A stretch of 64,000 nucleotides of DNA from assembly GCF_009931435.1 (NCBI RefSeq), contig NZ_CP043414.1; one strand, 5' to 3'. Shown here one piece after another: positions 39,691 through 43,891 of this stretch. Source of the DNA: Escherichia coli (GTDB lineage Bacteria > Pseudomonadota > Gammaproteobacteria > Enterobacterales > Enterobacteriaceae). Every line of letters begins with the position of its first letter. Positions within the stretch are counted from its first letter, which is position 1. Under the pieces are notes generated by a model. It did not search any database. It was given only the letters and a program-made list of their open reading frames with translations, and had not been told where the DNA came from. Made by a program: the position numbers and the translations under genes.

Positions 39691-40698
39691 CTATCCCAGT
39701 AACTCTTCCTTAACATCCATCGCCAGCTCAAACGAATGCAGGCGCGCCTGGTGATCGAAAATCTGCCCGTTAACCATAATCTCATCCGCGTCGGTTTCGC
39801 GCAGGATCGACTGCAAACCATGACGCACTTTCGCTTTATCACCCACCAGCGACATACTCAGCGCCTGCTGCACGCCATACTGCTCAGACGGTGACCAGAA
39901 CTGATCCATATTTTGAATCGGTGGCGGCAGTTGCCCGGTTTCACCGCGGCGCAGCTTCACAAAGGCTTGCTGCATTGAGGTAAACAGAAATTCAGCGTCG
40001 CGGTTGCTGTCGGCGGCGATAATATTGATGCACACCATCGCATACGGTTTTTCCAGTCGTGCCGACGGTTTGAAGTTGCTGCGATAAAGATGCAGCGCCT
40101 GGAATAGCATATCCGGTGCGAAGTGTGAGGCAAACGCGAACGGCAGACCAAGCTGCGCCGCCAGTTGTGCACTGTAAAGGCTGGAGCCTAATAACCACAC
40201 GGGGATTTTCTCGCCATAGCCTGGTACCGGGCGCACATGCGGATTGGGATCGCGGGCGTCAAACCAGTCCACCAGCTCCGCGACATCGCGGGGGAAATTA
40301 TCAATATCGCCGCTCATATGACGACGTAGAGCCATCATGGTTCGCTGGTCACTACCCGGAGCACGGCCCAGCCCCAAATCGATTCGCCCCGGATAGAGCG
40401 TATTGAGCGTGCCGAACTGTTCGGCGATCACCAACGGTGAGTGGTTTGGTAACATCACGCCGCCAGACCCCAGATGCAGCGTAGTGGTATTCGCCGCCAG
40501 ATAGCCAATCAAAACTGATGTTGCAGCACTGGCAATACCGGTCATATTGTGGTGTTCTGCCAGCCAGTAGCGATGATAGCCGCGCTTTTCAGCCAGACGG
40601 GCGAGGTCGAGAGAGTGGGAGAACGCTTCTCGCGCTGAAGAACCTTCTGGGATGGGGGCCAGATCGAGTAGCGAAAACGCAGTGGTTTTATCAGTCAT
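39691..40698 (-). CDS. yhbW: luciferase-like (LLM-class) flavin-dependent monooxygenase YhbW
   Basis: 335 aa [50 protein letters not shown]. Confidence 0.92.
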
Positions 40699-40778: not shown

Positions 40779-41657
40779 TTAGGCTTGCAGTTCCAGCCCA
40801 GCCAGCCGTCTCCAGTAGCCGTTACAGTCGCTGTTTGCCGTCAACGGGAGTGGTGCAGCGCCATTTTCATTAGCGCGGAAGGCGTCGAGCATCGCGAAAG
40901 TGTCAGTACCCTGCGGTGACAGGCGGACCACATCAACCAGCCCCTGCATGGATGCCAGCTCGTTACCGAGGTTGTACACGTAGCCGCTCATGGTCTGAAT
41001 GCCATTGAGCACAAACACTTGTTGGTTTTCCTGCGACAGCACGTTGCGCCCGTTCGGATACTTAATGCAGCAGGTTTCACACTCATCTTTTGGGCGGTCT
41101 TCCGAACGCGCGGTAAAGCAGCGGGCGGAGTAGGCCAGCGGCAGATGACCGTAGCTCAAGACTTCCACTTCAAACTGGTTGCGAATGCCCAGCTCATCGC
41201 ACTGATTAAGCAGATTCACCAGCCAGTCGCGGGAAAGTTCCACCGGCATACACCAGCGCATCATTCCCTGTTTGAGCAATATTTTCAGCGTCACCGCGTT
41301 GTAGCAGTTCAGAGCGTGTCCGGCGACGAACGGCAGTTTGCGCTCAGCGCACATATTCACCACGCCGAGATCGCTGGCTTCAATCAGAAACTCACCGTTC
41401 TCAACATAGCGTTTCAGTTCGCCCAGTTCGGAGGATGCCTGCACCAGCGCCAGCGTGGAGAGCACAATCTGCTTGCCACTTCCGGCGAGCGATTTTGCCA
41501 TCTCCAGCCAGTCGCCAACTTTGGTTGCCCGGCGTTTGCTACAGACCGCTTCACCGAGATAAATCACGTCTGCGCTGCTGGCGGCGGCCTGCTGATAAAA
41601 ATCTTCCAGCGTCTCTTTTGGCCAGTACCACAGCACCGGCCCTAAGGAATATTTCAT
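40779..41657 (-). CDS. ubiV: U32-family O2-independent ubiquinone biosynthesis protein UbiV (YhbV)
   Basis: ORF 40779..41675 trimmed to MKYSLGPVLWYWPKE; 292 aa. Confidence 0.88.
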   Translation of the reverse strand: MKYSLGPVLWYWPKETLEDFYQQAAASSADVIYLGEAVCSKRRATKVGDWLEMAKSLAGSGKQIVLSTLALVQASSELGELKRYVENGEFLIEASDLGVVNMCAERKLPFVAGHALNCYNAVTLKILLKQGMMRWCMPVELSRDWLVNLLNQCDELGIRNQFEVEVLSYGHLPLAYSARCFTARSEDRPKDECETCCIKYPNGRNVLSQENQQVFVLNGIQTMSGYVYNLGNELASMQGLVDVVRLSPQGTDTFAMLDAFRANENGAAPLPLTANSDCNGYWRRLAGLELQA

Positions 41658-41665
41658 TACTTTTC

Positions 41666-42661
41666 TCACTGCCATTTACGGTGATACGCGCCAAGAGTGG
41701 TTTGTGTGCCTTCGGACATCGACCCGAGCGTCTCCATCCACGCGCTTTGCGGCACGAAGTTTTGCGGATCGGCCTTACAACGGTCGATAGCCTGACGCCA
41801 GACTTTCGCTACCTGGCTGACATACGCAGGGCTACGCTGGCGGCCTTCAATTTTCACCGAAGCGATATTCGCCGCCATTAACTCCGGCAGTAGCTCAAGG
41901 GTATTGAGACTGGTTGGTTCTTCCAGCGCATGATAGCGCTCGCCGTCCACCAGATAACGCCCTTTACACAGCGTCGGATAACCTGCGTTTTCGCCGTCCT
42001 GATAACGGTCGATCAGCACTTCGTTCAGGCGGGATTCCAGCCCCTGCGGCGTTTGCTGCCAGCGCACGAAACGGGCCGGAGAACATGCCCCCACGGTGTT
42101 GGGCGACTCACCCGTCAGATACGACGACAGATAGCAACGACCTTCCGACATAATGCACAGACTGCCGAAAGCGAACACTTCCAGCGGTACAGGCGTGACC
42201 CGCGCCAGTTGTTTCACCTGATGAATCGATAACACGCGCGGCAGCACCACGCGGGCAACGTCAAAATGGCGATGATAAAAGTGAATCGCCTCTTCATTGG
42301 TCGCCGAAGCCTGCACTGACACATGACGCTCAATATGCGGGTAACGCTCGGCGGCGTACTCCAGCATGGCGAGGTCGGCGAGAATCAGCGCGTCGGCACC
42401 CAGCTGCGCCGCCATATCCACGGCGCGCTGCCAGCGGGCGTAACCGTCCGGATGCGCAAAAGTGTTAATCGCGATGTGAAGTTTGCGGCGATGTTGATGG
42501 ACAAAACTCACCGCTTCCTGCAATTTTTTCTCGGTAAAGTTAAGGCCGGCGAAGTGACGGGCATTGGTATCATCTTTTAGCCCGATATAAACAGCATCTG
42601 CGCCGTTTTCGATGGCCGCCTTAAGCGCCGGGAGATTTCCGGCAGGGCAGAGCAGCTCCAT
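41666..42661 (-). CDS. ubiU: U32-family O2-independent ubiquinone biosynthesis protein UbiU (YhbU)
   Basis: ORF 41666..42688 trimmed to MELLCPAGNLPALKAAIENGADAVYIG; 331 aa. Confidence 0.88.
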   Translation of the reverse strand: MELLCPAGNLPALKAAIENGADAVYIGLKDDTNARHFAGLNFTEKKLQEAVSFVHQHRRKLHIAINTFAHPDGYARWQRAVDMAAQLGADALILADLAMLEYAAERYPHIERHVSVQASATNEEAIHFYHRHFDVARVVLPRVLSIHQVKQLARVTPVPLEVFAFGSLCIMSEGRCYLSSYLTGESPNTVGACSPARFVRWQQTPQGLESRLNEVLIDRYQDGENAGYPTLCKGRYLVDGERYHALEEPTSLNTLELLPELMAANIASVKIEGRQRSPAYVSQVAKVWRQAIDRCKADPQNFVPQSAWMETLGSMSEGTQTTLGAYHRKWQ

Positions 42662-42869
42662 AATTTTTCCTGAAGGGTGCGCTATCAAAGCGCAAAAATG
42701 TTAACGAACTGGGATTTTAGTTAACCTTGCTGCGACAATTTTTGATTTAAGGCAGTTAAAGTTGTATTGGTGGTAGCAGCAATTTCATATGGAATTGTTG
42801 ATTTATACCGCTATGTTATTTTTCTGATATGGCAAAATAGGATGATTGTTGAAACAGGGAGTAAAACTC

Positions 42870-43394
42870 GTGTTGGATAAACTGCGTTCCCGTATTGTGC
42901 ATTTGGGGCCATCTCTGTTGAGTGTACCGGTAAAACTGACGCCATTTGCGCTAAAACGCCAGGTTCTTGAGCAGGTCTTAAGCTGGCAATTCCGTCAGGC
43001 GCTGGATGATGGCGAGCTGGAGTTTCTTGAAGGCCGCTGGTTAAGTATTCATGTGCGTGATATTGACCTGCAATGGTTTACCTCGGTGGTGAATGGCAAA
43101 CTGGTCGTTAGCCAGAACGCGCAAGCTGATGTGAGTTTTAGTGCCGACGCCAGCGATCTGCTGATGATTGCGGCGCGTAAACAGGATCCGGACACGCTCT
43201 TCTTCCAGCGTCGGCTGGTGATTGAAGGCGATACGGAGCTGGGATTATATGTGAAAAACCTGATGGACGCCATTGAACTGGAGCAAATGCCGAAAGCCTT
43301 ACGCATGATGCTGCTGCAACTGGCGGATTTTGTTGAGGCGGGAATGAAAACCACGCCTGAAACCAAACAGACATCGGTAGGTGAACCATGCTAA
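42870..43394 (+). CDS. ubiT: SCP2-domain lipid-binding protein UbiT (YhbT)
   Basis: GTG start at 42870 with SD AGGGA 10 nt upstream; (M)LDKLRSRIVHLGPSLLS; 174 aa; divergent from ubiUV. Confidence 0.85.
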   Translation: MLDKLRSRIVHLGPSLLSVPVKLTPFALKRQVLEQVLSWQFRQALDDGELEFLEGRWLSIHVRDIDLQWFTSVVNGKLVVSQNAQADVSFSADASDLLMIAARKQDPDTLFFQRRLVIEGDTELGLYVKNLMDAIELEQMPKALRMMLLQLADFVEAGMKTTPETKQTSVGEPC

Positions 43395-43891
43395 TTCGAG
43401 TAGAAATTCCAATTGATGCGCCGGGTATTGATGCCCTGCTGCGTCGTTCATTCGAAAGCGATGCGGAAGCGAAGCTGGTTCACGATCTGCGTGAAGATGG
43501 CTTTCTGACGCTGGGGCTGGTGGCGACAGATGACGAAGGTCAGGTCATTGGCTATGTGGCATTCAGTCCGGTTGATGTGCAGGGCGAAGACCTGCAATGG
43601 GTCGGCATGGCACCGCTGGCGGTAGATGAAAAATACCGTGGACAGGGACTGGCACGCCAACTGGTCTATGAAGGACTCGATTCGCTTAATGAGTTCGGCT
43701 ATGCCGCAGTGGTGACGCTGGGCGATCCGGCGCTGTACAGCCGTTTCGGCTTTGAACTGGCGGCACATCACGATCTGCGTTGCCGCTGGCCGGGCACTGA
43801 AAGCGCCTTCCAGGTACATCGTTTAGCGGATGATGCGCTGAATGGCGTAACCGGTTTGGTTGAGTATCACGAACACTTCAATCGCTTTTAA
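43388..43891 (+). CDS. yhbS: GNAT-family N-acetyltransferase YhbS
   Basis: 167 aa [24 protein letters not shown]; overlaps ubiT stop. Confidence 0.9.

Follow-up and report, generated by a model that had tools for sequence, protein, structure and literature searches.

The closest described counterpart of the region analyzed here is the spacer between ubiT and ubiUV of Escherichia coli K-12, in which three promoters and two FNR sites have been mapped (Arias-Cartin et al. 2023, mBio 14:e03298-22, PMC10470549; what is taken from this paper comes from its available portions). Site F1 (TTGATTTAAGGCAG) is located 36 nt 5' of the ubiUVp start, and site F2 (TTGATTTATACCGC) is located 33 nt 5' of the ubiTp2 start and 19 nt 3' of the start of the constitutive promoter ubiTp1. 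In a delta-fnr strain carrying pBAD-fnr the ubiUVp and ubiTp2 fusions are activated and the ubiTp1 fusion is not. Exchange of the five TTGAT bases in F1 or F2 results in loss of FNR-dependent anaerobic expression, in GFP fusions as well as on the chromosome. The F1 mutation (mutF1) removes activation of ubiUVp and abolishes anaerobic UbiV on the chromosome, and with the corresponding F2 mutation (mutF2) or deletion of F2 (deltaF2) the anaerobic induction of UbiT is lost and its aerobic basal level stays. Mutation of either site leaves the opposite operon unaffected, with the UbiT level unchanged in mutF1. Neither an in vitro footprint nor a gel shift is described in the available portions of the paper. 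An FNR ChIP peak is present at yhbT/yhbU (ubiT/ubiU) by all methods used in Myers 2013, where yhbUV is classified as directly FNR-activated but has no assigned start site, and Federowicz 2014 lists an Fnr region over the spacer in both fermentative and nitrate-respiring cells, with yhbUV and yhbST both activated. Published experiments thus demonstrate that expression depends on FNR, how mutation of each site acts, that the sites work independently, and that FNR occupies the spacer.

More distant systems share some of these features. In Pseudomonas aeruginosa the FNR-family sensor Anr activates ubiUVT, as FNR does in E. coli, and the ubiU 5' leader contains a stem-loop, as does the ubiU leader analyzed here (Cao et al. 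2023, Nature, PMC10247376). In P. aeruginosa ubiU, ubiV, and ubiT belong to a single operon, and the leader stem-loop masks the ribosome-binding site unless it is paired with the small RNA SicX (PMC10247376). In our sequence ubiT is divergent and has two promoters of its own, and the hairpin described below is positioned upstream of the Shine-Dalgarno sequence. FNR-like motifs 5' of ubiTUV have been found across Pseudomonadota, and positive control by FNR was proposed (ISME J 2024, PMC11707229). That study is a phylum-wide MEME survey, whereas our comparison was made at base level in 79 species of Enterobacteriaceae and resolves fixed non-consensus half-sites and fixed spacings. Among the class II FNR promoters of E. 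coli, the FNR site is centered at -41.5 in narG, dmsA, nirB, and nrfA, at -40.5 in focA, yfiD, and nikA, and at -42.5 in ydhY and fnrS (Myers 2013 Table 1).

The sequence studied is a stretch of 64,000 nucleotides (64 kb) from E. coli (assembly GCF_009931435.1, contig NZ_CP043414.1), referred to as the window. Its ubiU-ubiT spacer covers 208 bp (42662-42869) with a G+C content of 35.1%, compared with 51.7% across the window, in agreement with the initial annotation, which had described an AT-rich intergenic region between a GTG-initiated ubiT on the plus strand and ubiU-ubiV on the minus strand. The three proteins are assigned by NCBIfam equivalogs, UbiU by NF047963 (559.8 bits, cut-off 440), UbiV by NF047965 (363.7 bits, cut-off 275), and UbiT by NF047962 (153.6 bits, cut-off 46.9). 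The start of ubiV matches primer Ebp136 and the GTG start of ubiT matches primer Ebp275 of PMC10470549, the latter also the K-12 annotation. The assignment of ubiU agrees with the RefSeq annotation of matching genomes, and this DNA is present with identical gene annotation in all but two (5424) of the 5426 complete genomes of E. coli. The locus has the composition of an O2-independent ubiquinone locus, with UbiU and UbiV of the U32 family adjacent and in order and the SCP2 protein UbiT alongside, and the divergent order of ubiT and ubiUV is found in 79/79 of the compared loci that cover the ubiT region. The features of the locus are collected in Table 1.

Table 1. Features of the ubiT-ubiUV locus, with coordinates in the window
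Feature	Coordinates	Strand	Sequence or description	Basis
ubiV	40779..41657	-	292 aa + stop; start MKYSLGP	ORF list
ubiU	41666..42661	-	331 aa + stop; ATG at 42661; first in ubiUV operon	ORF list
ubiUV leader hairpin, GC-rich (predicted)	42678..42694	-	UGCGCU-UUGAU-AGCGCA; ~+13 to +29	RNAfold
ubiUVp -10 hexamer (putative)	42714..42719	-	TAAAAT	sequence and published F1-start distance
F1, FNR site for ubiUVp	42742..42755		TTGATTTAAGGCAG; consensus half nearest ubiU	named and mutated in PMC10470549
ubiTp1 core, constitutive (putative)	42742..42770	+	TTGATT (42742-47), 17 nt, TATTGG (42765-70)	
F2, FNR site for ubiTp2	42798..42811		TTGATTTATACCGC; consensus half farthest from ubiT	named, mutated, and deleted in PMC10470549
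ubiTp2 extended -10 (putative)	42830..42838	+	TGgCAAAAT	sequence; start ~42845 fits published 33 nt exactly
ubiT Shine-Dalgarno region	42855..42861	+	CAGGGAG; 8 nt before GTG	conserved block in 79 species
ubiT	42870..43394	+	GTG start at 42870; 174 aa + stop	ORF list

Comparison of the window with K-12 MG1655 resulted in only 2 differences among the 208 spacer bases (42677, G for T; 42690, G for A). The substitutions are both located in the ubiU leader hairpin and outside F1, F2, and the promoters. The two sites, the three promoters, and both ribosome-binding regions match the K-12 spacer studied in PMC10470549 at every base. Because just two bases differ, neither of them in a mapped element, the published K-12 map transfers directly to the window. 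An in-frame TTG (42846-42848) is present 24 nt 5' of the ubiT GTG. It sits at the ubiTp2 start (~42845) and would therefore be usable on transcripts from P1 only, and it is probably not a start codon, the preceding AGGA being just 3 nt away.

The comparison with published promoter mapping that the initial annotation had called for thus finds the operator architecture already defined in PMC10470549. FNR control of ubiT and ubiUV is known in detail for identical sites, and since the experiments were published on the same sequence, our main finding contains nothing new. We hold with high confidence that the spacer contains three sigma-70 promoters together with the FNR operators F1 and F2, which are independent of each other and act in class II fashion on ubiUVp and ubiTp2. 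The present analysis adds the matrix scores of the two sites, their class II positions, and their conservation, including that of the non-consensus halves, in 79 species. The scores, the conservation, the spacings, and the sequence identity with K-12 were established here by direct measurement on the sequences.

The initial annotation had noted TTGAT half-sites in the spacer and the lack of a perfect TTGAT-N4-ATCAA palindrome, and both observations hold. The strings it had quoted are TTTTTGATTTAAGG at 42739-42752 and TGTTGATTTATACC at 42796-42809. Within them TTGAT itself begins at 42742 and 42798, and one more ATCAA begins at 42684; no perfect TTGAT-N4-ATCAA occurs in the spacer. The F1 and F2 14-mers each contain 3 mismatches, located in the second half, with 7 of the 10 consensus positions matching. 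F1 retains the key positions T2, G3, A4, C12, and A13, and F2 fits the consensus in its left half and in only A10 and C12 of its right half. The two sites share one pattern, a perfect TTGAT followed by TTA and then by a poor half in which the key C of position 12 is retained. The third half-site (ATCAA, 42684-88) was rejected as an operator; it falls 3' of the start site, within the hairpin loop of the leader, and shows no conservation.

For scoring, a symmetric FNR matrix was built from the 63 ChIP-validated sites of Myers 2013 Table S6, the weakest of which has an ln p of -10.5; the published cut-off is -10.75 (Myers 2013). F1 scores 8.33 bits (ln p -8.75) and ranks 19 among 63987 window positions, and F2 scores 1.30 bits (ln p -6.0) and ranks 227 among 63987, which is at noise level. 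As both sites fall below -10.75, they are not identifiable from sequence alone. The same is seen in Myers 2013, where the best site at this location was scored at -8.72, below that study's own cut-off of -10.75, and where the yhbT/yhbU locus is missing from the list of predicted sites. The site listed there that is closest to F1 is TTGATTTAGGGCAA at aqpZ/ybjD, and neither the F1 nor the F2 string has a match in the motif table of Federowicz 2014. Several 14-mers of the window outscore F1 on the FNR matrix, among them TTGCTGAAAGTCAA (start 2987, 12.2 bits), TTGCGCTGAATCAA (34539, 11.75 bits), ATGACCTTGCTCAA (24776, 11.72 bits), TTGATTAAAATCTA (56963, 11.64 bits), and TTGATTGCCATCAC (36136, 11.21 bits).

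Scores of this kind would also be seen if the TTGAT half-sites were chance occurrences in an AT-rich spacer and anaerobic induction were indirect or proceeded through other sequences. TTGAT-N4-ATCAA with up to 3 mismatches has 291 matches in the window against 242.5 ± 15.7 in shuffled sequence, at least three half-sites occur in 4.7% of spacer shuffles, and by motif alone F1 and F2 are not beyond chance. What lifts them above chance is the 8-mer TTGATTTA common to both sites, their fixed spacing to the -10 elements, and their near-invariance in 79 species. On the plus strand the 8-mer occurs nowhere else in the 64 kb, and two copies were obtained in 0 of 5000 spacer shuffles. Experiments also argue against chance sites. 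When just the five TTGAT bases are mutated, FNR-dependent expression is lost from plasmid fusions and chromosomal loci alike (PMC10470549), and FNR ChIP peaks are located on the spacer in Myers 2013 and Federowicz 2014. Chance occurrence is already effectively refuted by the published mutagenesis, and we regard it as extremely improbable. The same mutagenesis and ChIP peaks bear out the proposal of the initial annotation that the half-sites are FNR operators responsible for anaerobic induction of ubiT and ubiUV. Its suggestion that failure to pass an FNR matrix scan would refute this proposal is not tenable, as the scores of -8.75 and -6.0 (Myers 2013, -8.72) against a threshold of -10.75 would wrongly reject proven sites.

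The positions of F1 and F2 relative to the promoters were calculated with start sites derived from the distances stated in PMC10470549 and not from raw dRNA-seq data. As the start sites depend on the wording of that paper, the positions of the F1 and F2 centers are good to about ±1-2 bp. With the minus-strand ubiUVp start placed at ~42705-42707, the F1 center (42748.5) is at about -41.5 to -43.5, and the F2 center (42804.5) is at about -40.5 from the ubiTp2 start. The ubiTp1 start was placed at ~42778-42779 from the 19-nt distance to F2 and from the extent of the P1 and P2 fusions as set by primers Ebp192 and Ebp194 (PMC10470549). The hexamers assigned to ubiUVp, ubiTp1, and ubiTp2 are putative. 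The -35 region of ubiUVp reads AAATTG, which provides no usable -35, and no recognizable -35 element is found at ubiTp2, where the sequence reads GCTATG. The combination that defines the class II position, a site near -41.5 with a -10 present and no functional -35, is found for F1 with ubiUVp and for F2 with ubiTp2. The location of both sites ~40-43 bp 5' of promoters that have a -10 only and lack a usable -35 argues that FNR is a class II activator at both. The single product of a simple promoter scan, TTGATA/AATTAT at 42688..42660, was discarded; it overlaps the ubiU start codon and fits no mapped start.

In these respects ubiUVp and ubiTp2 resemble the known class II FNR promoters of E. coli, with a site ~40-43 bp upstream, a -10 without a -35, and FNR-dependent expression. 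They differ from them in the quality of the sites. The class II sites mostly pass the ln p cut-off of -10.75 and have two recognizable halves, whereas F1 and F2 each have one consensus half and one poor half, the latter being conserved.

ChIP data were placed on the window with a coordinate offset between genome versions that was calibrated on the nearby yhcC site. The FNR ChIP-seq summit (Myers 3,299,423) falls at ~42745, inside F1, and a sigma-70 ChIP-seq peak (3,299,327), with an occupancy that is doubled in anaerobiosis, falls at ~42842, at ubiTp2. The FNR summit favors F1 as the main occupied site and is compatible with occupancy of F2 too, as summit-to-site offsets in Myers 2013 are 14-70 bp and ChIP cannot resolve two sites 56 bp apart. 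The aerobic/anaerobic expression ratios are 0.07 for yhbU, 0.115 for yhbV, and 0.49 for yhbT (Myers 2013 Table S12), and this order of induction, stronger for yhbU and yhbV than for yhbT, parallels the order of the matrix scores, 8.3 bits for F1 and 1.3 bits for F2.

The position of the summit also raises the question of whether F1 is the sole true FNR operator, with the F2 mutations lowering ubiTp2 activity through damage to an UP element or other upstream promoter DNA. This would fit the low score of F2 (just 1.3 bits, ln p -6.0) and the single predicted site at yhbUV in Myers 2013 Table 1, and mutF2 alters P2 positions around -47 to -43, a stretch that the alpha-CTD might contact. However, the ubiTp2 fusion, which starts at 42776 (Ebp194) and does not include F1, is still strongly activated by pBAD-fnr, and the UbiT level in mutF1 is the same (PMC10470549). 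In addition, F2 tops the matrix matches within the P2 fragment, its TTGATTTA is present in 73/79 species, and it has the class II distance from the extended -10. A sole operator at F1 is therefore considered very unlikely.

The reading that we prefer, two FNR operators each serving its own promoter, operates as follows. Without O2, F1 and F2 are occupied by [4Fe-4S]-FNR dimers, which bring RNA polymerase to the minus-strand promoter ubiUVp and the plus-strand promoter ubiTp2, presumably through class II contacts at both. The stronger site, F1, drives tightly anaerobic expression of ubiUV, with ubiU induced roughly 14-fold, and the weaker site, F2, gives ubiT a modest anaerobic boost of roughly 2-fold. 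The promoter between the sites, ubiTp1, is independent of FNR and provides the aerobic basal level of UbiT.

Conservation was assessed in the best 80 loci of a genome scan, all from Enterobacteriaceae, of which 79 include the ubiT region; Yersinia and Vibrio are outside this set. F1 reads TTGATTT[G/A]AGGCAG in 75/79 species, and its non-consensus half GGCAG is present in 78/79. F2 contains TTGATTTA in 73/79 species, and YGCCGC or TACCGC comes next in nearly all. Exactly 22 nt separate the ubiUVp -10 (ATTTTA on the plus strand) from F1 in 76/79 species, the gap between F2 and TGnCAAAAT is 18 nt in 59/79, and TTGATT-17-TATTGN (ubiTp1) is present in 75/79. In contrast to these fixed distances, the distance between F1 and F2 varies from 56 to 67 bp, being 56 in Escherichia and 65-67 in most genera. 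Fixed spacing between site and promoter together with variable spacing between the sites is the pattern expected of a pair of class II activator sites that act independently, and the variable F1-F2 distance agrees with the published independence of the F1 and F2 mutations (PMC10470549). The near-invariance of F1 and F2 at a fixed distance from the -10 elements is also difficult to reconcile with chance sites. The conservation of the poor halves suggests that weak FNR binding is selected and not merely tolerated.

A further block, 42698-42727, is very highly conserved across the 79 species. In this block the ubiUVp -10 and start are enclosed by two palindromic GTTAAC hexamers, at 42700-42705 and 42720-42725, with a distance of 20 bp between them. 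The strong conservation could indicate that a second regulator, such as ArcA, a nitrate-responsive protein, or another factor, acts on the -10 and start blocks of ubiUVp, for example through the GTTAAC pair, and the sequences TGTTA and AGTTA, 21 bp apart, loosely resemble ArcA direct repeats. The GTTAAC pair, however, is intact in just 39/79 species and was dropped as an operator, and the block is core promoter, which is sufficient reason for its conservation. Neither the ArcA tables of Federowicz 2014 nor the available supplements of Park 2013 show an ArcA peak at yhbU/T, and ArcA was rejected as a regulator for want of a ChIP signal in these two sources. We consider a second regulator at ubiUVp very unlikely.

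Two further properties of the spacer may add to control by FNR, namely a dual use of F1, as ubiTp1 -35 and as FNR site, and a post-transcriptional layer provided by a hairpin in the ubiUV leader. Taken together, this reading is tentative and we would not favor it at present. The TTGATT of F1 overlaps the likely -35 of ubiTp1, and the overlap is kept in 75/79 species. FNR bound at F1, ~-29.5 from P1, may occlude ubiTp1 and switch ubiT from P1 to P2 under anaerobic conditions. A single binding event at F1 could then shut P1 while activating ubiUVp, with ubiTp2 turned on through F2. In PMC10470549, P1 shows no activation by FNR and mutF1 does not alter anaerobic UbiT. The conserved non-consensus halves (GGCAG and GCCGC) may hold affinity low, and if so, induction would need high levels of active FNR.

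The predicted leader hairpin is located within a leader of ~45 nt. The ubiU Shine-Dalgarno AGGA (42671..42668, minus strand) is downstream of the hairpin and outside it. A hairpin folds in most of the 79 species (RNAfold, 71 distinct leaders), with stems that vary by genus (GCGCU/AGCGC, GCGCC/GGCGC, GCGACC/GGUCGC, CGAUC/GAUCG, and others), and one of the two substitutions between K-12 and the window turns a U.G pair of the stem into C-G. Counted in a fixed register, pairing is found in 76.6% of cells, compared with 71.7 ± 1.3% in shuffles (maximum 75.7%) and 21-57% for slid partner columns. This count gives modest support to conservation of the hairpin and is suggestive, not strong. No consensus structure emerged from RNAalifold with MAFFT-aligned leaders, as the stems are out of register. 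Searches of Rfam returned sub-threshold chance matches only (CRISPR-DR22, 21.9 bits versus 50; DicF, 17.4 versus 48). The available portions of the 2023 mapping paper (PMC10470549) make no mention of the hairpin. It may act after transcription, for instance on mRNA stability or on small-RNA access.

Among the flanking genes, yhbW (39691-40698, minus strand), which follows ubiV, is expressed at an aerobic/anaerobic ratio of 6.8, a direction opposite to that of the neighboring ubiUV (Myers 2013 Table S12). On the other side, yhbS is co-induced with ubiT, with a ratio of 0.47 (Myers 2013 Table S12). yhbS (43388-43891) has a 7-nt overlap with the end of ubiT (43394), and its protein has no NCBIfam family match at E <= 1e-5. 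YhbS is probably HqbA. HqbA is an acetyltransferase-family regulator of Hfq RNA binding (PNAS 2023, PMC10710024).

Through the ubiT-ubiUV spacer, O2-independent ubiquinone synthesis in E. coli is restricted to conditions under which FNR senses anoxia, while UbiT is kept present for the return to air. An FNR operator can be functional and yet score well below matrix thresholds, and a matrix scan is therefore a poor refutation test for sites of this kind. For the evolution of such sites in Enterobacteriaceae, the conservation of the poor halves of F1 and F2 suggests that weak binding is itself under selection.
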